Origin: a phage
Length of the DNA stretch: 64,000 nt
Direction: 5' to 3' (one strand)
Sequence record: PV730299.1
Shown: piece by piece, positions 23,520 to 45,715 of the stretch
Numbering within the stretch: position 1 is the stretch's first letter
Layout: each line of letters starts with the position of its first letter
Made by a program: the position numbers and the translations under genes
Notes under the pieces: generated by a model
What the model was told of the DNA's origin: nothing
What the model saw: only the letters and a program-made list of their open reading frames with translations
Database searches by the model: none

Positions 23520-23838
23520 CCAACGGGAATCAAAACGGCTCGCGCGCGTTTAATTTATTCGAATATAACTCGCGAGGGGGCTGACGCCCTCGCTCGTAAC
23601 ACCGCCCTGTGCGGGCAGCACCATTCCACAGCCATGGAGGCTGCTTCTCGTTGTTCGTTGACACTCACAACTCGAAGGGCACTGCGTTAGGATACAGTTT
23701 CTTGATGTTGTAGAAAAGTAGTTTTTACCTATTAATAATCACTGTCATTATTTTATTGGTCATTCCTGTGTTTATATTCAATAAACATACTCCCAATATA
23801 ATAACGGAGACATTTAATCAATCCAGTGAGGCTCCGGA

Positions 23839-24408: not shown

Positions 24409-24465
24409 CGCTTTATTCAATAAATAATTGCAGTAAAGTTAGTTGCATGGAAGGGAGGGAACACT

Positions 24466-24612
24466 ATGTTTTACATGATGTTACTCCTCATCCTCCTGAT
24501 CGGGATTACCTTTACTCTCCTGGGTCTACCCGATCAGTCCGGTAAACAGACGCCCACTTCGGCGCATCCGGTTTTGTGCGAAGGTTCGTCCGCACTGCTG
24601 TGGGCAGTGTAG
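24466..24612 (+). CDS. small hydrophobic peptide, 48 aa
   Basis: ATG with AAGGGAGGGA RBS 6 nt upstream; single hydrophobic helix; below ORF-track size cutoff. Confidence 0.35.
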   Translation: MFYMMLLLILLIGITFTLLGLPDQSGKQTPTSAHPVLCEGSSALLWAV

Positions 24613-26439
24613 CTCAAAGAGGAGAGGACTTTTCAAATTAGCTGGGCTGCAGTAAAGTATTAAGCGTGAGGCGAACAACGCATCGAGTTAGGCATCTAAA
24701 GCCGACCTCGCTAATCCCAGTCTCAGGGGCATGCGTGAATAGAGGCGTGATATCCACCTTGCATGGTGTCAGTGGACGCACTTGACCGTCGGAGAACGAA
24801 ACTCCCTGTTGTAGCGTGATTAGCTCAGAATCAGAGAGCACCCCGTTGGCAAGTCGACACCAACGCAAGGGGAGGTCGGGGGCGCTAATCTCCATCACGC
24901 CGACAACATTATGAGTCTTCCATAGAGGGTTCATAATGTTGCGTCAAAGGGCAACAAGGTTCCTGTTGGTTGAATTAACTTGATTCATAGTTCCTACTGA
25001 TCTTCCCGGATTCGAAGGAGCACCAACAGGCGAGGCCGGATGCGTAAGTTCCGGTAAATCGATGGTGATACCCTCGCCAACAAAAATAAAAGGTTTTATC
25101 AATAACGGGTTACAAAGTATAGTTAACCCACTGAAGCGAAAAGCTGTTTGGGCATTAGACAAACACTTCGATGTGAACCCAGGACATGGTGTCTTGTGCT
25201 CAAACAGGTTTTCGTTTTCGTTGTGAGTGACTTTGCGGGTTTTTAGAAACTGACCAAGCAAATAACTGCTAATGATTCCGAAGTTCTGATGGCGGCGTAA
25301 CAGCCTATAAGTCAGTGAGGTCTTCCGATTCCTCATCACCAAATTCGGCGCACTAAAATAGACGGGAGGGTGTGATTAATAATCTCCCGTCGACAATGCC
25401 GTTATATCTGACTGTCCAAAGGGGATAAGCTCCTGAGTAAGCAGAGGTGGGTTGCCTAAGTCAGATGGGATGTAAGGTCAGCGCTGGCCAAGCATTTGGG
25501 TTCGACTCCTAAAAACGGCTCCACATCTTTGAGGATATTCTCACGAGTATCTTGAAAGATGTGAGCGAAGTCTTGCCATCAGCCCTGATCCCTGGCAGGT
25601 GAAGGGCACACAAATCGAAGTGTCTTGACAATTTATCTTAAACCCAAAGGTTGATCTAGAAATTGGGCGGCCAATCCGGTGGACGATAACAGCATATTGG
25701 GCCATACTGTTGAGTCAGGGCACTTCGATTTGTGAACTTGAGAGAGCATTGGGTGAAATAGACCATGCCTTGCAGATTGCGATGTCTACACACATTCCGG
25801 ACACTGGTGGGCACCAAGAAGAACTCAGTAGCAGACGAGCCATCAGGGTTAGCTACCCGGCGCGGCGAGGACTGGGAGGCCGAACTAAGGGGAAACCCGA
25901 GACAGGCGTAGTATTCTCAAGTTCACAAAATGAAGAGCATTTAAAGAGTTCGATTCTCTTTCAGGCCATTCGTGGTGTGATGTGAGTCATGAATGTTCTT
26001 CATCTTTGGGTGATTCTATGTTGCCGGGCTATCAACCCATGCTTGCTGGAGCAACCAGCGGCTCTGAATCAACCAGCCAGCCTAGTTTGGTCCGAGCGTT
26101 AGAGGACAAGTTGCTTCTGTATGGAAGCTGCGAGTTGTAACATTTGGTTGCAACTTTGATGGCTCTGGATTTTATAAACCATGTCTATGGGTGACGCGGG
26201 ATCTTTAGTACCAGAGCTATCAAAGTTGTGTCCAACCCGATCTTACAAGCCCGTATCCCGGTCTGGTTAAGACTTGTAAGTGGAAAGCCCTGGAAAAATA
26301 AACGCCTGTGGCGAGGCTATGGTGCAAGCCAAAGACCCACAGAAGCGCATGCCGTGAGGCGCACAAACAGGCATGCATGAACTGATCATGCACAAACGGG
26401 ATAAAGGGTTGACAGTCCTTGGTTGGTACACAATAATTT

Positions 26440-26516
26440 GGTCCTGTAGCTCAGTCGGTTAGAGCAGTGAACTCATAATTCATTGGTCATTGGTTCAAAC
26501 CCAATCAGGATCACCA
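26440..26516 (+). tRNA. tRNA with CAT anticodon (Met, or Ile2 if lysidine-modified)
   Basis: Manual cloverleaf: acceptor GGTCCTG/CAGGATC, D-arm GCTC-AGTCGGTTA-GAGC, anticodon loop CTCATAA, T-arm ATTGG-TTCAAAC-CCAAT, encoded CCA. Confidence 0.85.
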
Positions 26517-26769
26517 TGTTAAGGGGTGTGAAACATAACACTCCGACAAACACAGTAAGCGTTGCAGCCAGCTGTGTATAAAATGGGGATGACTCCGCAT
26601 CGGAAACGATGCCCCAACTTCCAGAAATGGTCGGGCGCAAAGCCTGTAAAGTTCCAGGAGATCGAACCAGAAGGCACTGGTCGCCAGTTAACCAATCGGC
26701 GCTGAGAAGCGCGGGGAGTTGGGCTACGGCAGATCAAATGCTCAATCGGGTGTGAAGCCCGTCCAAATT

Positions 26770-26858: not shown

Positions 26859-27228
26859 AATTACGGGCGTGACTTCCTGAAGAGTTAGAAGATGTGCATG
26901 TCGACTCTCTCGTAATCGGGGTGTTTAGGAAGTTAAGAAAATCGCGGCGAGGATAGTGAAATGCAAATAGCTTTCTCTACGTCGACGACTTCAGGTTCGA
27001 CTCCTGACGCGCTCTCCCATAGGGTAGTACCAGTGCAAGCGTGTAGTCTTTCAACCCATCCCATCGATGTGGTATAGCCGGATATCCTATCCGGCTTTCT
27101 TTTTATCCCTGTCTTATTATCTTCTTATCGGCCCAAGCATGTCCTCCTTTATCATAGTTTGTTCAATGATACAAAGGGGGTTTAAAATTTAACCGTTAAC
27201 CCCCTGTCATAGATTTGAGGATACACCG

Positions 27229-29156: not shown

Positions 29157-29167
29157 CTAAATACCCC
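29157..29167 (+). promoter_or_regulatory. late-promoter-like motif CTAAATACCCC (distal copy)
   Basis: Followed by ATACCCCATAC / GTGTGGGGTAT inverted repeat. Confidence 0.4.
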
Positions 29168-29753: not shown

Positions 29754-29756
29754 GAA

Positions 29757-29785
29757 AAGGGGCTTAACGCCCCTTTCTTTATTTC
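29757..29785 (+). terminator. rho-independent terminator
   Basis: Stem AAAGGGGC/GCCCCTTT, loop TTAAC, then TCTTTATTT. Confidence 0.7.
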
Positions 29786-29914
29786 ACCTTCCGGTGCTCT
29801 GCTTCGGTATATTCGATTGCCATGATATAGTCCTTCTCTTCAGATTGTTGTTCCGTACTACAATTAGAAGTATACACCAGTTATTGAAGAAGTAAACTTT
29901 ATTCAATAAATATT

Positions 29915-30136: not shown

Positions 30137-30164
30137 ACCAAAAGAAAGGGGAGTTTCCTCCCCT
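30137..30164 (-). terminator. rho-independent terminator after minus-strand membrane protein gene
   Basis: 7-bp stem AGGGGAG/CTCCCCT, U-tract on minus strand. Confidence 0.55.
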
Positions 30165-30169
30165 TGAAC

Positions 30170-30821: not shown

Positions 30822-33821
30822 ATGACCGTTTTCTATACGAACGTTGCCCGAAGGGGCAATGACCTGTTGATTCGAATTGCAGATGACATGGGTAATCGCC
30901 GTCTGTTGAAAAAGAAATTCGAACCCACTCTCTATTTACCCACGGCTGACTATTCAAATGTTGAAAAGGTCGGTCTTCTCAATGAACCCCTGGTAGCCAA
31001 GCAGTTCCCTTCCATGCGTGACGCTGACAACTATCTTGAAGAGTACAAGGAAGTCCAGGGTGCTGCCATTTACGGACAGACCGATTATGCATACCAGTTC
31101 ATCGCCCATAGCTTTCCTGGAAAGATTGAGCCGGATTATTCCAACATCCATATTGCTAACCTCGATATCGAAGTGTTCTCCGCCGGGTGGAAAGACGGAA
31201 AGATGACCAAAGGTCCATTCCCTCACCCAACCATTGAGCAGCAGACGTTCAAAGGGAATGAGGCGCGCATTCGCCGCTTCCATAAACAAGTGCTGGCCAA
31301 CCATGAATTTGTCCGTGAGCACTTCCCTGGTTCTTTCATCAGCAACAACGTCACTGATCAGTTCCCTATCATTGATAGCAATGGTAAGATCACCCAGGAC
31401 ATGAATGCGGCGTTCCCCATTACCCTGATCCAGCTTCAGGATATGGCGACCAATAAGTTCATGGTCTGGGGTATGCCCTGTGCCAAAGACCGCAATAAGT
31501 TCGCATACGACACCGAAGACAAAGAGATCGGCGGCCTTGAGGTTGTTTATCAGGAGTTCACCACCGAACAAGATCTGCTGCGCTCGTTCCTAGACTTCTG
31601 GTCGGAGCGTCAGTTCGACGGATGGACTGGCTGGAACATTGAGACGTTTGATAGCCCTTATCTTGTTGAGCGCATGAATCAGGTTCTGGGTGAGGCTGAA
31701 ACGTCGCGCCTCAGTCCTTGGGGTATCATTAAGAAGCGTATCATTCGCGATAAGAAGGGCGATATCACGACGTATCAGTTCGTGGGCTGTCCTATGCTCG
31801 ATTATATGCAGATCTACAAGAAACACACGTACACCACCCGTGAACGCTACTCTCTTGACTGGATTGCGTATTGTGAGCTGGGTGAGAAGAAGATGGACTA
31901 CAGTGAGAGCAAGTCGCTCTTTGATCTGTACTTCAACGACTACTGCAAACACACCCGATATGGTATCAAAGACGTTAAGCTGGTATGGCGACTTGAACAG
32001 AAGCTGCGCCTGCTCCAGCTGATGTTCGTCCTTGCTTACCGCACCAAGTCCAACTATGAGGACGGCCTGGGTACTGTGGCTCCGTGGCTGGCCATGTGCT
32101 ACTATCGCCTGTACGAGAAGGGGATAGTACCTAAGATCCAGCGTGTATACGATGGTCCGACCGACTTTGAGGGTGCATACGTCATGGATGTGACACCAGG
32201 AATCTACTTCTGGGTCTTCTCGGAAGATTTGAACTCCCTGTATCCTCACATCATTCAGCAGTACAACCTCGGTCCAGAGACTATCGTTGGCGACAAACAC
32301 CAGCGCCGCGAGATTATTGAGGCTATGTGTGAAGAGCTGGCTGCTCAGATGAATAACATGGCAACGCCGATGCACAAACGTCGGTTGATGAAAGCCCTTC
32401 ACGACAAGCTGTTGCGTGCGGTTGATGAACGCCTGCAGGTTGTTGATGAGTTGGTTGCCCTGGGTGAGTTCCACTTTGAAACCCTGCGCCGCTACAACGT
32501 GTCGTTCACACCGAACGTTCAATTCTTCAGCAACGAGAAGATGTCGTTCCTGTCTGAAATCATGCGCGGTATCTACAGCGACCGTAAAGTAGAGAAGGCC
32601 AAGGGGCTGAAGTACGAGCAGTGGGCTGGTTGGTGTAAAGAGATGTCGAAGGGCGACTTCCATCTTGAGTCTGCCATGAAGTCTCGCTACTATGACCCAG
32701 AGTGGTATGAAGAGCACAAGAACATTGATCTTGATGCCCTGACCGAAGTGATGAAGAAGTGGGAAGACCTGGGCGTCGCTCAAGATACCCTTCAACAAGG
32801 TCTGAAGATCTTGATGAACGCAGGTTATGGCGCGATCTCAAACGTCTGGTTCAAAGAGTACTTCAACCTCAACATTGCCGAAGCCATCACCACATCCGGT
32901 CAGCTGATCAACAAGTGGAACAAGCGTTACACCGATGATTATCTGAACAAGCTGTGTGGTACAACAGGCCAGGACTTCGTCATCGCAGGGGATACCGACT
33001 CCAACTACATCTGCATTGAGCGTCTTGTCAAGCATTTGTGGCCTGATGTTACTGACCATCATGCTATGGTTGATAATATCGACCAATGGATCAAAGACAA
33101 CTACCAGCCGAAGACCAATGAGTGGGCACAGCTTCTGTGTAACACCATGAACGGATTTGAACAGCGCATGGTGTGGGAGCGTGAGGTCATTGCGTCAGCC
33201 GCTGTCTGGCGAGCCAAGAAGATGTATGCCATGGCCGTGTACGACAGTGAGGGTATCAAGTACGAGAAGCCGAAGATCAAGTTCAAAGGTCTGGAAGCCC
33301 GCAAGTCCACCACACCGGAATGGTGTCGTGAGCGTCTTGTCAAGTGCTATGAGAAGATCCTACTCGGCACCGAAGAGGAAGTGCAGACGCTCATCTCCCA
33401 GTACAAAGAGGAGTATATGAAACTCTCTGTAGACGATATCGCCAAGGCGTCAGGTGTGTCCGACATAGAGAAGTGTGTGGCTGCTGACGGATCGTTTATA
33501 TCTGGTGCTCATTTTGCTGCCAAGGCGTGTGTGGGCTACAACCGTCTGGTTGAGAAGAACGAAGATCTGGGTCTACCGATGATCGAGTCGGGTGATAAGG
33601 TACAGATGGTGTTGTTGAAGCCGGGCAACCCGTTTGGGCAGAACTACTTTGCATATCCTGAGTTCTTCCCCGAGGAGCTTGGTCTGGGCAAATGGGTGGA
33701 TTATCAGGCGGCCTTTGAGAAGTCCTTCATTGATCCGATTCAGTCTATCCTCGACGTGGTCGGCTGGTCACACAAGCGCCGTGTGAACCTTCTTGCCATG
33801 ATGCAAAAGAAGAAAGGTTGA
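30822..33821 (+). CDS. DNA polymerase, family B, T4 gp43-like
   Basis: FPSMRDA N-terminal motif, SLYPHII and GDTDS polymerase motifs, AITTSGQ; TGGAG RBS. Confidence 0.95.
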   Translation: MTVFYTNVARRGNDLLIRIADDMGNRRLLKKKFEPTLYLPTADYSNVEKVGLLNEPLVAKQFPSMRDADNYLEEYKEVQGAAIYGQTDYAYQFIAHSFPGKIEPDYSNIHIANLDIEVFSAGWKDGKMTKGPFPHPTIEQQTFKGNEARIRRFHKQVLANHEFVREHFPGSFISNNVTDQFPIIDSNGKITQDMNAAFPITLIQLQDMATNKFMVWGMPCAKDRNKFAYDTEDKEIGGLEVVYQEFTTEQDLLRSFLDFWSERQFDGWTGWNIETFDSPYLVERMNQVLGEAETSRLSPWGIIKKRIIRDKKGDITTYQFVGCPMLDYMQIYKKHTYTTRERYSLDWIAYCELGEKKMDYSESKSLFDLYFNDYCKHTRYGIKDVKLVWRLEQKLRLLQLMFVLAYRTKSNYEDGLGTVAPWLAMCYYRLYEKGIVPKIQRVYDGPTDFEGAYVMDVTPGIYFWVFSEDLNSLYPHIIQQYNLGPETIVGDKHQRREIIEAMCEELAAQMNNMATPMHKRRLMKALHDKLLRAVDERLQVVDELVALGEFHFETLRRYNVSFTPNVQFFSNEKMSFLSEIMRGIYSDRKVEKAKGLKYEQWAGWCKEMSKGDFHLESAMKSRYYDPEWYEEHKNIDLDALTEVMKKWEDLGVAQDTLQQGLKILMNAGYGAISNVWFKEYFNLNIAEAITTSGQLINKWNKRYTDDYLNKLCGTTGQDFVIAGDTDSNYICIERLVKHLWPDVTDHHAMVDNIDQWIKDNYQPKTNEWAQLLCNTMNGFEQRMVWEREVIASAAVWRAKKMYAMAVYDSEGIKYEKPKIKFKGLEARKSTTPEWCRERLVKCYEKILLGTEEEVQTLISQYKEEYMKLSVDDIAKASGVSDIEKCVAADGSFISGAHFAAKACVGYNRLVEKNEDLGLPMIESGDKVQMVLLKPGNPFGQNYFAYPEFFPEELGLGKWVDYQAAFEKSFIDPIQSILDVVGWSHKRRVNLLAMMQKKKG

Positions 33822-33834
33822 TTCAATAAACCAA

Positions 33835-33854
33835 AGGGGGATATAATTCCCCCT
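33835..33854 (+). terminator. hairpin after DNA polymerase gene (weak U-tract)
   Basis: Stem AGGGGG/CCCCCT, loop ATATAATT; preceded by TTCAATAAA. Confidence 0.35.
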
Positions 33855-33883
33855 GTTAACCCTTTGACAAACAGGTGATTGAA

Positions 33884-34225
33884 ATGAAACTCAATAAGAT
33901 TCTTCTGGTGTGCGCTCTGGCTTTCTCTACCACTGCGTGTTCCACCCTTCTGGACGTTGCTTCTACTGTAGACCTTGACGCGCCGACGTTCACCAATGAG
34001 CAGGCCGTGTCCAAGATGGAAGACACCATCAAGGCGCATGCAGCACTGGACAACACTACCCCAGGTCCGCTCCAAACTGTCTGCAACTATGACGATTCCA
34101 TCCAGGAAGACGAAACTTACCACTGCATCACCTACGTGAAGCAGGCCTCCGTCGTTCTGTATGCAGATTGTACCGAAGAACAGTGTGTTGCTACAGGCTA
34201 CGATAAAGTTGAGGAAGACAAATGA
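33884..34225 (+). CDS. putative secreted protein or lipoprotein, 113 aa
   Basis: Signal-peptide-like N-terminus ending LAFSTTAC; start set to ATG 33884 with AGGTGA RBS. Confidence 0.5.
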   Translation: MKLNKILLVCALAFSTTACSTLLDVASTVDLDAPTFTNEQAVSKMEDTIKAHAALDNTTPGPLQTVCNYDDSIQEDETYHCITYVKQASVVLYADCTEEQCVATGYDKVEEDK

Positions 34226-38923: not shown

Positions 38924-39091
38924 ATGTTACAAGATCTGCTGGTTTATGCGCTTCCTGGCGCGGTTGTCGGCTTCATTGCTGGTGCTCTGGTCTTCCGTAA
39001 ACACGCGCAAGATGGTGAAGTGATTGTTCAGAAAGGCAAAGAGATTCTGGACCAGATCGAAGCCAAACTGGAAGAGCTGAAGAAAAAGTAA
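38924..39091 (+). CDS. small membrane protein, 55 aa
   Basis: Manual ORF; hydrophobic N-terminal helix; strong terminator downstream; TATAAATA 29 nt upstream. Confidence 0.4.
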   Translation: MLQDLLVYALPGAVVGFIAGALVFRKHAQDGEVIVQKGKEILDQIEAKLEELKKK

Positions 39092-39119
39092 TCTGACTGG
39101 GGTTGCTTCCTTCAATAAA

Positions 39120-39158
39120 GGGGAATGGGTTATTATTAGCCCATTCCCCTTTCTTTTT
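39120..39158 (+). terminator. rho-independent terminator
   Basis: 10-bp stem GGGGAATGGG/CCCATTCCCC, loop TTATTATTAG, then TTTCTTTTT; preceded by TTCAATAAA. Confidence 0.75.
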
Positions 39159-39259
39159 GCAAGAATATACATCATGGCAATGCAACGAATTGAAGATATG
39201 TCTCTACTCAACATGGAAGCGACTTTTGGCGCTTCCGTTATCGTCATGGGAGAATCCAA

Positions 39260-41182: not shown

Positions 41183-41596
41183 ATGAGCGTGAAACTCACT
41201 GAATCCCTGACACTGGACCAACAGCAGGCTTTGTTGGATGAGGTAGTGATCTCTGCTATCAAGCAAGGGATTATCAAAGACGACTTGTTGATTGACCGTC
41301 CCGAGATGATCCATCATCTGGTGGTGTGCCTGGGTGAGGCCAGCAACCCTCGCAAGAAGATCGTGCTGTTTACTGATGGTGTGATCCTTCCGAGCGGGAA
41401 ATGTGCGTTCTTGGATGTGGTTGAACATCCGAACACGAAAGGCAAAGAGGTCAAGACTTCTGTTCCGGTGACTCCATACACCGAGGGTGTTGACCATCTG
41501 TCTTGGTTTGAGACAATCAACACCATTTATGTGATGACACCGGACGGTAAACCAGTTCGGGATCTACGAGGCGGCAAAGTAGAATCTGAAGACTAA
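41183..41596 (+). CDS. hypothetical protein, 137 aa
   Basis: Start set to ATG 41183 after LemA stop. Confidence 0.5.
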   Translation: MSVKLTESLTLDQQQALLDEVVISAIKQGIIKDDLLIDRPEMIHHLVVCLGEASNPRKKIVLFTDGVILPSGKCAFLDVVEHPNTKGKEVKTSVPVTPYTEGVDHLSWFETINTIYVMTPDGKPVRDLRGGKVESED

Positions 41597-41612
41597 TCGT
41601 TCTTCAATAAAA

Positions 41613-41646
41613 GGGGATAGGGTATTATTGCTCTATCCCTTTTTCG
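41613..41646 (+). terminator. rho-independent terminator
   Basis: Stem GGGATAG/CTATCCC, loop with TATTATT, then TTTTT; preceded by TTCAATAAA. Confidence 0.7.
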
Positions 41647-41707
41647 TGGACAGGAACATGACAGACAAGCCAAGAAAGATGAAGAACAAACACCGGAGCA
41701 AACGCTG

Positions 41708-42163
41708 ATGACTACCAAACCAACTTATGAAGAACTGGCGCAGACCGTTCTGACCTTTGACAGCACCCTGAAGAATCTTTACAAGGTGCTGGGAAATAAC
41801 CCGACTTCAGAGTCAGGAGAAACAGTTAATCTTCTGTTACTGATGAACCCTCTGTGGGATATTGATGCCACTATTGCTGCCCTGAAAGATCCTGGGGCAC
41901 AGGAGCCGGAGCCAACCCCTGTATCCACTGGGATTCAGAAATACCTGGAGAACTTTGACGAGTACTCCTTCACAGATCTGCTCCTGCGTGATATGATCAA
42001 CACAGAACGCCGTCGCCAGGGGAAGAACTGTCCTGTGGTCCAGTCTGATGAAGAAATAGAGCAGAGTGTTCGGGAAGATCTGAACAGCACCTACTCGCCT
42101 ATCGATCTGGCTGTAATGATTGTTCAGGCGCTGTCCTACGCCGCCAAAGGAGAAACGAAATGA
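41708..42163 (+). CDS. hypothetical protein, 151 aa
   Basis: ORF track. Confidence 0.5.
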   Translation: MTTKPTYEELAQTVLTFDSTLKNLYKVLGNNPTSESGETVNLLLLMNPLWDIDATIAALKDPGAQEPEPTPVSTGIQKYLENFDEYSFTDLLLRDMINTERRRQGKNCPVVQSDEEIEQSVREDLNSTYSPIDLAVMIVQALSYAAKGETK

Positions 42164-42852: not shown

Positions 42853-42861
42853 TCTGAACAA

Positions 42862-42884
42862 AGCCCTCAGTCGAGGGCTTTTTC
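42862..42884 (+). terminator. rho-independent terminator
   Basis: Stem GCCCTC/GAGGGC, loop AGTC, then TTTTT. Confidence 0.7.
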
Positions 42885-42958
42885 AATTGAAGACACCCAC
42901 CGTATTATACCCACTCAACCAATATGTTCCCCTTTGACATTGATAGGATTTCTATACT

Positions 42959-45715
42959 ATGAAAATGCGCAAGTCCGAGCACTTTATCCGCTCGTCGTCT
43001 TCCATTCAGGGGCAGGCGTTCAACGTTAAAATGAACGATAAGATGTTTGAGACTCTGTTCTCATCATTGTATCGTTACAAAGAGGCTGCAGCCCTGCGCG
43101 AAACCGTCTGTAACGCCATCGACTCCCATGGCATGCGTGATCGTATGCACCGTGTGATGGCATCCCACTACGCGCCTCTCACTCCCCCTCCTGCCCGCCA
43201 CAGCAAATACCTTGCACCGAAGGGTAAGCAGGTTGTTGTGCATCTACCTGATGACTTTGAGCCATGGCTGGAAATCCGTGATTACGGCATCGGTCTGCCA
43301 CTTGAGAAGATCATTGGTGAGCCTATCCCAGCACAGGAAGATGAGGTGCTGCTGGAAGGCAACATGGTGGTCAAGGAAGATGAGATCCCTGACTCAGCTG
43401 AGGTCATCGGCGTGCCTGCGTTCTATAATGGTGGTCTAGTGTTCCGTCGCGAAGATGGTGAAATCATTCGTACGCCTGGGTTGTATACCACTCTCTTCCA
43501 CAGTACGAAGGAAGAAGATGATGATCAGATTGGGGCATTCGGTCTTGGCTCCAAATCACCATTTGCGGTATCGGATTCGTTCACTGTGGAAAGCCGCATG
43601 GACGGTAAACTCCATCGCTTCCTGATGTACCTGAATGCCAAGCGCATCCCGACTGTTGATCTGATCACCAAAGATCTTGAAACCCGTGATCCTAAGCCGG
43701 AAGACACCGATGAGTTCAACGGCATGACGGTGAAGATCCCGGTGAAGAACGCTCGCTTCTCCGCATTCTCCGATGAGCTGGTTCGCCTTGGTCGTGTTAT
43801 ACGCCCTGAACAACGTCCAATTGTTGAGAACGCTTCATACCGCTTCGGCTGGGAAGATATCAGTTATGAATTCAAGGTCAATAACACATACATCCAGCCG
43901 AAAGGCCAGGGGAACATCCATTATGCTGTAATGGGTGGCGTGTCGTACCCGATTGACCTGGACCAGCTGGACCCGGACACTGCTTCCATCATGAGCAAGT
44001 TTCCATCGTCCTATACGTTCTTCGAACTCGGCTCGCTGAACGTACCACCGTCGCGTGAAGACCTTTCATATGACGAATTCACGCGTGAGACGCTCTCTGA
44101 GGAGTTTAAGGGCACCGCCAATGCAATCTTGACAGAAAAGATGCGTGACCTGGAGCTGGCGTGTAAGCGTGGTCCTCTTGCCCTGTATATGGAGAAGGTA
44201 AAACTGAGTGAAATGTTCGGCAGTGGGTTCCGCAAGATGGTTGAAAAGGAATACCCGGCAGACAAGCGCTTTCATGATTCATATTACCGTTACCCGCTGC
44301 CTGTTGAGATCGACCGTGACTATGACCACACCGCGCCGTTCAATGAATTGTCATCGCCGTTCTCTATGGAGATCTTCTATGACTGGGGTGAGTCCAGTAA
44401 TTTGACCATTTCAGAAATCCAGAAGTGGATTGATCGCGGCCAGCATGTTACTGTGGTGATCGAAGATAGTGTTCGTGCTCGTAACCTGAAGATCAAGCAG
44501 CTGAAAGATACAGGGACGATAGTCATCGTGGCCAAGCCGAACACATCCTATGTCACCAAGCGCAACCAATCTAAGGACAACCCTGCGTTCAAGAATTCTC
44601 AGGCTCTCTATGATTTCTTTGAAACTTGGATTGGTAAAGAAGAAACGACGGTTGATTATCTGTGCTTCGCCGACAAGTTCGTCGATTGGCTGAGTGCGGT
44701 GTTGGAGCCTGCTGAAGTCAAGTTCATGAACGAACTGTCGTATGTCACGCCCCCGGTCACCAAAGACCCTGGCCTGTTTCCGTTCACGCGCAGCAACTTC
44801 GACATATACCAGTATGAAGAACTAACGGGCGACCAGATCTCAGATATCATCAACAAGGGCGAGCGCATCGTCTATATTGAGGTGTCTGGCCATGCGTGTA
44901 TCCATCAGGTGATGGACAGAACGTTGACGACTGCGGCGGCGCGGGGTATTCGTAAATCTCTGTATGAGCACGCAGTCAGTGTCGACGATGAAGGCAAGCC
45001 AGTGTACATCAGCGATATGTTGAACGTTCACAACCGAATCTTCTTGGCTCGTCGTAAATCCGTGCCAATGATGAAGAAGTTCCCAGAGGTCTTCATACCG
45101 ATCGATGAAATCCTGAAGATCATGTTGGAAAACGTGAAGCCTATGATGGAGCGCGATAGCGCCAGGCGCATACTGGAATCATACCGCCGCATGCGCCTTG
45201 GGGCGGATCGATTAAAATACGGGAGCCATCTGGTTCATCAGGCGTTTGGTGATGTTGAAGACGATCGTTATGGCAAATTGGTCAGCCGTTACAACAAGTT
45301 AATGAAAGTTGTGGACGATATCTTGGATGAGCAGACTGTACGTCATTACCAAAGCCTGGCGAAAGCCCCGGTTTCAATCAATGACAAGCGTCGATTTAGC
45401 CATTTCCAGGACACAATACATTCTCTTAACGTGAATTTGTACGCCAACGAGCGTGACGAAAAGATCTTCCGTTCAGAACATCAGATGCTACAGATCTTTG
45501 AATGCGCTTCGGATGTGTTGCGGTTTCATGGATTTACACCGTTTGATATATCGAGGACTCCGTCATTGAAAGCAAGGCGGGAAAACCGATTGACCATCGA
45601 GCGTCATCGTGTTGTCCGGTTCTTGAAAGAGAATTACAAACCAAGCGCCCTGAACCCGATTGAAAAATCTTCGGATTACTTGGACGTTATTTCAAATTCC
45701 ATTATCAGGGCATAA
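42959..45715 (+). CDS. rIIA: rIIA-like protein with GHKL-type ATPase domain
   Basis: N-box-like ETVCNAIDSH, G1-like IRDYGIGLP, G2-like GAFGLGSKS; large size and position beside rIIB-like gene and topoisomerase genes. Confidence 0.6.
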   Translation: MKMRKSEHFIRSSSSIQGQAFNVKMNDKMFETLFSSLYRYKEAAALRETVCNAIDSHGMRDRMHRVMASHYAPLTPPPARHSKYLAPKGKQVVVHLPDDFEPWLEIRDYGIGLPLEKIIGEPIPAQEDEVLLEGNMVVKEDEIPDSAEVIGVPAFYNGGLVFRREDGEIIRTPGLYTTLFHSTKEEDDDQIGAFGLGSKSPFAVSDSFTVESRMDGKLHRFLMYLNAKRIPTVDLITKDLETRDPKPEDTDEFNGMTVKIPVKNARFSAFSDELVRLGRVIRPEQRPIVENASYRFGWEDISYEFKVNNTYIQPKGQGNIHYAVMGGVSYPIDLDQLDPDTASIMSKFPSSYTFFELGSLNVPPSREDLSYDEFTRETLSEEFKGTANAILTEKMRDLELACKRGPLALYMEKVKLSEMFGSGFRKMVEKEYPADKRFHDSYYRYPLPVEIDRDYDHTAPFNELSSPFSMEIFYDWGESSNLTISEIQKWIDRGQHVTVVIEDSVRARNLKIKQLKDTGTIVIVAKPNTSYVTKRNQSKDNPAFKNSQALYDFFETWIGKEETTVDYLCFADKFVDWLSAVLEPAEVKFMNELSYVTPPVTKDPGLFPFTRSNFDIYQYEELTGDQISDIINKGERIVYIEVSGHACIHQVMDRTLTTAAARGIRKSLYEHAVSVDDEGKPVYISDMLNVHNRIFLARRKSVPMMKKFPEVFIPIDEILKIMLENVKPMMERDSARRILESYRRMRLGADRLKYGSHLVHQAFGDVEDDRYGKLVSRYNKLMKVVDDILDEQTVRHYQSLAKAPVSINDKRRFSHFQDTIHSLNVNLYANERDEKIFRSEHQMLQIFECASDVLRFHGFTPFDISRTPSLKARRENRLTIERHRVVRFLKENYKPSALNPIEKSSDYLDVISNSIIRA

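Follow-up and report, generated by a model that had tools for sequence, protein, structure and literature searches.

A two-part, promoter-like motif nested in intergenic hairpins of a ViI-like phage

At positions 39111–39158 of the 64,000-nt stretch of phage DNA analyzed here (record PV730299.1; hereafter the window), a short A/T-rich sequence stands between a stop codon and a G/C-rich hairpin, raising the question of whether the locus ends one transcription unit, begins the next, or does both. The short sequence, TTCAATAAA, which we call the box, occupies 39111–39119 on the plus strand, 20 nt after the stop codon at 39091, and the three A's at its end pair with the first nucleotides of a downstream T-run. 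The plus-strand hairpin (39117–39152) is formed by arms at 39117–39132 and 39137–39152, with 16 pairs including A-U and G-U pairs. A −10-like hexamer, TATTAT (39131–39136), lies in the apical loop region, 11 bp 3′ of the box, and the T-run, TTTCTTTTT (39150–39158), completes the shape of an intrinsic terminator. The ATG at 39174–39176, 63 nt after the start of the box, opens an ORF of only 29 codons at a place where the related phage AV101 has two small genes. The original prediction, made from the sequence of the window, regarded this arrangement as a recurrent terminator carrying a conserved upstream box, which might also include a promoter for the following unit.

The window comes from a ViI-like phage of the family Ackermannviridae and is ∼96% identical to Escherichia phage AV101. 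The 12-kb stretch around the locus has matches in 284 phage records, the best of which is AV101 (Ackermannviridae, Aglimvirinae; 96.7% identity). The gene layout of the window was taken from alignment to the whole AV101 genome together with the AV101 annotation, and the assembled AV101 sequence (156,759 bp; 91.9% coding and 8.1% intergenic) was used for genome-wide counts. Minus-strand late genes, among them those for the tail spikes and baseplate gp6, fill the first 23.5 kb of the window, and plus-strand genes of early and middle types follow from ∼23.8 kb on, including tRNAs, DNA polymerase (30822–33821), rIIA (42959–45715) and topoisomerase. An Rfam scan of the window returned two tRNAs and nothing else. 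A stretch of ∼1.3 kb (25100–26440), reaching from a degenerate promoter-like site at 25098 to tRNA-Met (26440–26516), has no annotated AV101 gene, no Rfam match and only short ORFs, and may hold untranslated RNAs or decayed tRNA genes.

The box is strongly over-represented and its placement is far from random. Six copies of TTCAATAAA are present in the window, where 0.75 would be expected; each is intergenic and on the plus strand, and 100 shuffled sequences never contained as many. Exact copies are present where they had been predicted, at 39111, 41603, 33822 and 23777; the remaining two lie at 24416 and 29902, not at 24415 and 29895 as first reported. The proposed position shortly 3′ of a stop codon also holds, with the box starting 1 nt after the stop of the DNA polymerase gene (33821), 20 nt after 39091 and 7 nt after 41596. 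AV101 has 16 exact boxes where ∼1.5 are expected, and the motif is clearly not as frequent within coding regions as between them: 15 of the 16 are intergenic (binomial p = 6e-16). When up to two mismatches to the box are allowed in AV101, its start lies 53–63 nt before the next start codon in about 15 intergenic sites. An alignment of 20 sites yields the consensus TTCAATAA(A/C), in which the C is invariant and upstream of which nothing is conserved; a TGn extended −10 element is absent from these 20 sites.

The box is tied to the −10-like hexamer. The combination TTCAATAAA-N11-TATWAT is found four times in the window, compared with 0.00 expected from shuffled sequences, so that four of the six box copies fit it. 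The same association holds in AV101, where a hexamer with at least five of six matches to TATAAT follows intergenic boxes (at most one mismatch, n = 35) at spacers of 10, 11, 12 and 13 bp in 3, 8, 1 and 3 cases, respectively; only one of 58 boxes in coding sequence has such a hexamer at such a spacer. When two box mismatches are tolerated, AV101 has 25 intergenic two-part sites and 12 in coding sequence, in a genome that is 92% coding. Altogether there are about 20–25 copies of the two-part motif per genome, conserved in both subfamilies, and a scan of IMG/VR for TTCAATAAA-N11-TATAAT found it in at least 120 unrelated contigs, with one match each among the matches listed, a result that does not bear on family specificity.

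This spacing does not depend on a hairpin. The two-part motif occurs without one at 23777 in the window, ahead of tRNA-Asn in AV101, and at positions 26056 and 27977 of Kuttervirus CBA120, and the distance from box to hexamer is 10–13 bp, mostly 11 bp, whether a hairpin is present or not. The box is therefore best read as the upstream half of a promoter and not, as originally supposed, as the conserved upstream part of a terminator. The site at 23777 (box 23777–23785, TATAAT 23797–23802, 11-bp spacing, plus strand) has the minus-strand gp6 gene on one side and, on the other, the first of the plus-strand genes (ATG 23839); genes that diverge in this way require a promoter between them.

The box is linked to one kind of hairpin. 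In a catalogue of intergenic AV101 hairpins, in which one hairpin may be entered once per strand, the entries fall into two groups: many plain terminators with tetraloops such as TTCG and GAAA, and a smaller number with a −10-like hexamer in or around the loop. A box with at most two mismatches lies 9–13 bp upstream in 11 of the 18 entries with a −10-like loop but in only 1 of the 118 others (Fisher p = 7e-11), which indicates that loop sequence and box belong together. The hexamer lies inside the loop at 33822, 39111, 41603 and 27162 in the window and at at least eight further AV101 sites.

The second composite element of the window (41603–41644, plus strand) closely parallels the first. Its box (41603–41611) is followed by TATTAT (41623–41628) within a hairpin of 16 pairs (arms 41609–41624 and 41629–41644; −24.2 kcal/mol) and by the T-run TTTTT (41640–41644); the ATG that follows (41658) belongs to a remnant of 16 codons, and the subsequent ORF starts at 41708. 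The third (33822–33854, plus strand) has its box at 33822–33830 and a hairpin of seven G/C-rich pairs (33835–33841 and 33848–33854) around the loop TATAAT (33842–33847), and the next ATG is at 33884. G/C-rich hairpins with TATTATT- or TATAATT-type loops are thus present at all three sites named in the original prediction, where they enclose TATAAT (33822) and TATTAT (39111 and 41603) and the hexamer is itself the loop. The predicted T-run follows at 39111 and 41603, that is at two of the three; no T-run follows the 33822 element, where TGTTAACCC comes next. A stable G/C-rich stem with an immediate U-run 3′ of a gene, the usual shape of an intrinsic terminator, is accordingly found at 39117–39158 and 41609–41644 but not at 33835–33854, so that the 33822 hairpin would at best be an attenuator or an RNA-stabilizing stem. 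Roughly one in two composite hairpins has no U-run, and for these the term terminator is not established.

The sites that had been listed as related forms of the same element (23777, 24416 and 29902) all lack such a hairpin. At 24416–24439 (plus strand), the box forms part of a near-palindrome, CTTTATTCAATAAAT, and is followed after a 9-bp spacer by a weak −10, TAAAGT, with an ATG at 24466; this site is probably a weak or different variant. At 29902–29910, the plus-strand match comes from reading a near-palindrome, TTTATTGAATAAA, in antisense; the near-palindrome stands just ahead of a promoter on the minus strand that belongs to a second class (29869–29910; TTTACT 29896–29891, 16-bp spacer, TATACT 29874–29869). 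The match is produced by the A/T-rich upstream region of that promoter, TTTATTGAATAAAG, and is not a member of the box class. Degenerate members on the plus strand are ATCAATAAC-N11-TATAGT at 25098–25123 and TTCAATGAT-N12-TAAAAT at 27162–27205 (ATG 27229), the latter with its hexamer in the 15-nt loop of a hairpin (27175–27182 and 27198–27205). Upstream of rIIA, the parts are arranged without overlap on the plus strand (42860–42908): a plain terminator hairpin (42860–42881) is followed by TTCAATTGA (42882–42890), a 12-bp spacer and TATTAT (42903–42908), with the rIIA ATG at 42959.

Two further intergenic features were noted. The sequence CCCTTTGACA has exactly two copies, at 33860–33869 after the DNA polymerase gene and at 42930–42939 before rIIA. 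Both copies lie in the predicted 5′ leader 3′ of a box/−10 promoter, and the first is invariant across 15 relatives; the sequence contains TTGACA, without a suitably placed −10. Most other intergenic hairpins, including those at 29755–29777, 30146–30165 and 42860–42881 and many in AV101, are symmetric, consisting of an A-run, a G/C-rich tetraloop stem and a T-run. Such hairpins score as terminators on both strands and are candidates for bidirectional terminators between convergent or tandem genes.

The folding of the composite stems and their conservation point to constraint on both the RNA and the loop. The 39111 hairpin (−27.8 kcal/mol for a 61-nt fold, z −5.6) and the 41603 hairpin (z −5.1) are far more stable than shuffled sequence. 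Among 12 composite stems, the sense strand is on average 4 kcal/mol more stable than the antisense strand, and G-U pairs number 18 in the sense strand compared with 3 in the antisense strand (p = 0.012), which points to selection acting on the sense RNA. Orthologous loci from IMG/VR, 18 after the DNA polymerase gene and 19 after the gene ending at 41596, come from both subfamilies and are flanked by proteins 67–100% identical to those of the window; the conservation counts rest on 15–18 distinct relatives, again from both subfamilies. The 33822 element is unchanged at 28 of its 33 positions, with a mean identity of 96% compared with ∼80% for the adjacent 120 nt of coding sequence. The 41603 element has 34 invariant positions of 44, and third codon positions just upstream of it average 56% identity. 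Box, stem and loop are all conserved and nearly invariant in both subfamilies, whereas the sequence of a loop could vary freely if its sole role were to close a terminator. The orthologous copies are too conserved to contain true compensatory changes, and support for the stem comes instead from the different stems at paralogous sites and from the G-U asymmetry.

The reading we favor, with a probability of roughly 0.6, is that each composite element is a promoter for the next gene, made up of box and −10 hexamer, built into the terminator or attenuator hairpin of the previous gene, so that RNA polymerase would both stop and start within it. The central idea of a terminator compounded with a promoter for the next unit is thus supported, but the anatomy differs from that first proposed: box and loop would together be the promoter, and this promoter would lie inside the hairpin. 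The 9-bp box, TTCAATAA(A/C), would span roughly −32 to −24, and the −10 element, a hexamer similar to TATAAT, would follow it after 11 bp (range 10–13 bp). The spacer and the stretch just 3′ of the hexamer are G/C-rich and mutually complementary, so that the spacer would supply the 5′ arm and the start region the 3′ arm. In RNA arriving from the upstream gene, the two arms would pair and leave the −10 hexamer in the loop. Transcription would then end at those elements that have a U-run after the hairpin (39111 and 41603); at 33822, which has none, the stem would probably do no more than attenuate read-through or protect the 3′ end. Initiation at the embedded promoter is predicted ∼7 nt after the hexamer, within the 3′ arm, which would place the transcription start of the 39111 element near 39143 and those of the others near 41635 and 33854. 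Without a 5′ arm, the new RNA would be unable to fold into the hairpin and would continue into the following gene, the ATG of which is 53–63 nt beyond the box. A promoter 3′ of the hairpin is not feasible because only ∼20 nt separate the hairpin from the next ATG.

The closest precedent for such an arrangement is the promoter-early stem-loop (PeSL), an intergenic element of the T4-like phages RB49, phi1, PST and nt-1 (Arbiol et al. 2010, PMC2839356; Comeau et al. 2014, PMC4122927). Between the upstream stop codon and the ATG, PeSLs contain, in order, an A/T-rich stretch, a strong promoter together with a G/C-rich stem-loop, and a Shine-Dalgarno sequence; the usual place of the stem-loop is between the −35 and −10 elements or over the −10 (PMC2839356; PMC4122927). 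PeSLs recur many times in a genome, for the most part ahead of small genes without known function, and their promoter and terminator activities were measured with lacZ fusions (PMC2839356; PMC4122927). The elements described here likewise fit between stop codon and ATG in an intergenic cassette within ∼100 bp, the box starting 1–20 nt after the stop and the ATG following 53–63 nt after the box start, and they also carry a stem-loop over the −10, with activities that in our case are deduced from sequence. They differ in that PeSLs have a σ70 −35 element, TTGACA, at 16–18 bp from the −10, whereas here TTCAATAA(A/C) stands at 11 bp from a near-consensus −10; and PeSLs are known from T4-like Straboviridae, whereas these elements belong to Ackermannviridae. 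The nesting of promoter and terminator is familiar from T4-like phages, but the upstream box is unusual.

In its geometry the box matches a T4 middle promoter, in which a MotA box at −30 is combined with a σ70 −10 element through 'sigma appropriation' by MotA and AsiA (Hinton 2010, PMC2988021). Both classes have a 9-bp box in place of a −35 element, at 11–13 bp from a TAnnnT −10 in T4 and at 10–13 bp here, and both serve replication and nucleotide-metabolism genes. The box itself, TTCAATAA(A/C), is nonetheless unrelated to the MotA box, (a/t)(a/t)(a/t)TGCTT(t/c)A. Using T4 MotA and AsiA queries that were 100% identical to database entries, we obtained no phmmer match at E ≤ 10 in six-frame translations of AV101 and the window, a search whose scope is sequence similarity and does not extend to remote structural homologues. 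Neither protein has been reported for CBA120, ViI or Ag3 (CBA120 paper), and the authors of the CBA120 paper could not find early or middle promoters of ViI-like phages.

Relative to intrinsic terminators, the 39111 and 41603 elements share the G/C-rich stem followed by a U-run. They depart from the other hairpins of the genome, which have variable tetraloops, in having conserved, −10-like loops of 6–10 nt, and several members, including 33822, lack the U-run. The Ag3 genome paper lists the 39111 orthologue as the rho-independent terminator Torf248 and the 33822 orthologue as the σ70 promoter Porf237, together with one other member as a σ70 promoter. The coordinates of one such promoter overlap those of a listed terminator, although that paper did not note the box or the general design.

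Two other promoter motifs of the genome bear on the class of the box. A σ70-like class, TTTACT-N16/17-TATACT, has 10 intergenic sites and one coding site in AV101. In 8 of the 10, a box in either orientation is found no more than 25 bp upstream of the −35 hexamer, and a box-like sequence stands in the spacer of four; any factor that reads the box may thus have a wider role, and this proximity explains the plus-strand match at 29902. Sites of this class include window 29869–29896 (minus strand), AV101 5166, 79360 and 116754 and seven others; several have a terminator hairpin whose 3′ arm directly adjoins the −35 hexamer, and ∼80 nt including the 5′ leader are common to three. The second motif, CTAAATAYC, occurs eight times in the window compared with 0.66 expected, and six copies lie on the minus strand within the late region at 1–23.5 kb (2069, 8580, 13595, 16202, 19646 and 23511). 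In AV101, many genes for late structural proteins (gp22, sheath, gp14, tail spikes and gp6) have it 35–50 nt upstream, and it is probably the gp55-type late promoter of Ackermannviridae, distinct from the TATAAATA of T4. The two plus-strand copies, at 29157 and 29256, suggest that late transcription enters the genes at 29.2–29.8 kb. We rejected a late (gp55) promoter function for TTCAATAAA itself, since late genes carry CTAAATAYC and the 23-kb late region of the window contains no box.

The strongest competing explanation is that these are ordinary σ70 early promoters, which host RNA polymerase would read in its unmodified form; some would overlap terminators by chance, and the box would be a weak −35 region. 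The Ag3 assignments agree with this, and a simple scan finds TTGATT-N18-TATAAT (33818), TTATCA-N16-TATAGT (25096) and TTTTCA-N17-TATTAT (42880). Moreover, the 23777 site heads the first plus-strand early cluster, where a promoter that the host can use is expected. The σ70-like scores are nevertheless confined to 33818 (TTGATT-N18) and two degenerate members; most members lack a −35 match of at least four of six at 16–18 bp, and none has an extended −10 (TGn). The pattern of conservation also disagrees, with nothing conserved upstream of the box and a nearly invariant TTCAATAA that reaches into the would-be spacer. Reading TTCAAT as a normal −35 hexamer was rejected because its spacer would be 14 bp, and in general the box stands too close to the −10 hexamer to be a normal σ70 −35. 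A separate and clearly σ70-like class, TTTACT-N16/17-TATACT, exists in the same genome. We consider the ordinary σ70 interpretation unlikely.

A somewhat less probable alternative is that the box is the site of a phage or host DNA-binding protein, such as a repressor, a nucleoid-type protein or a timing switch, that modulates several promoter classes from outside the promoter core. The variable position and the two orientations of the box near the −35 in 8 of 10 TTTACT-class promoters are as expected for such a site, as are the near-palindromes (TTTATT-C/G-AATAAA) at window 24416 and 29902 and at AV101 89281, and the phage encodes HU-like and 'histone-like' proteins. The box may also resemble the high-affinity site of H-NS, TCGATAAATT, and IHF sites; the IHF consensus did not fit the one site compared by eye (25098). 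A free operator would not, however, be expected to show the sharp 11-bp spacer peak and the fixed sense orientation, which are the behavior of a core promoter element. Nor did a candidate protein emerge from the eight proteins driven by TTTACT promoters, which gave no significant Pfam match and whose PHROGs families are all of unknown function, leaving no activator candidate among them.

Plain intrinsic terminators, in which AATAAA would be an A-tract pairing with the U-run, the A/T-rich loops would be incidental and the repeats would stem from cassette copying by recombination, account for the AAA–UUU pairing in the 39111 and 41603 hairpins, the A-runs and T-runs that flank many plain terminators of this genome and the differences in gene content beside several cassettes, but are very improbable given the hairpin-free copies of the two-part motif, the box on only 1 of 118 plain hairpin entries, the constant distance to the next ATG and a loop hexamer that is invariant across subfamilies where the loops of real terminators vary freely. 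An RNA-level signal, with UUCAAUAAA beside a stable stem acting as an RNase E-type processing site or a stabilizer of mRNA 3′ ends that separates cistrons, is equally hard to credit: the sense-strand G-U asymmetry, the single-stranded, A/U-rich box immediately 5′ of the stems and one AV101 box (79384) that precedes a plain tetraloop terminator would suit it, but it leaves unexplained both the fixed distance to TATAAT at hairpin-free sites and the copy at the divergent 23777 junction, where no upstream sense transcript is expected.

For the promoter nested in a hairpin, the remaining question is which polymerase would read it. Because the box is too close to the −10 for a σ70 −35 element, and because the σ70-like class and the late motif are separate, we infer, with less confidence than for the promoter itself, that a phage-made factor would be needed and that the box marks a delayed-early or middle promoter class. 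The genes served are of early and middle types, the sites lying after DNA polymerase and before nrdA, gp32 and the thymidylate synthase operon. In its full form the proposal is tentative: an undescribed delayed-early or middle class of Ackermannviridae, with TTCAATAA(A/C) near −30 possibly read by a candidate phage factor that retargets host RNA polymerase in the manner of MotA/AsiA but without homology to them, nested in preceding terminators so that one signal of ∼35–45 bp would end one unit and start the next. The literature searched yielded no published 5′ or 3′ transcript ends, reporter data or promoter motif for Ackermannviridae and, within its incomplete coverage, no paper describing the box.

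The surroundings of the cassettes vary among relatives. At 39180 and 41679, which are 4–21 nt past the cassette ATG, gene content departs from that of AV101 or other relatives, and a breakpoint of an indel falls just before the box at 25098 (25067/25090). After the 39111 cassette, two small AV101 genes are replaced by 79 bp (39181–39259), and after the 41603 cassette (41658–41707) there is a 16-codon remnant (MTDKPRK...) of a Rossmann-type gene that is intact in relatives. A 185-aa minus-strand gene has been cut to 14 codons (29786–29823), and tRNA-Asn and tRNA-Tyr are absent from the window, a difference in gene content from relatives whose changed stretches include 25067–25098 and 26527–26546. 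The changes beside cassettes are reminiscent of the shuffling linked to PeSLs, though at least one case (29812) looks like a simple internal deletion.

The two-part motif is a concrete candidate for a promoter class that was missed by the first genome papers on ViI-like phages, and it also points to a candidate phage factor that would retarget the polymerase. A promoter nested in a terminator would carry the PeSL concept beyond the T4-like phages. The motif may be of use in annotating transcription units in Ackermannviridae, which are widely used in therapy and biocontrol, and the nested element could provide a compact insulating part for phage engineering.
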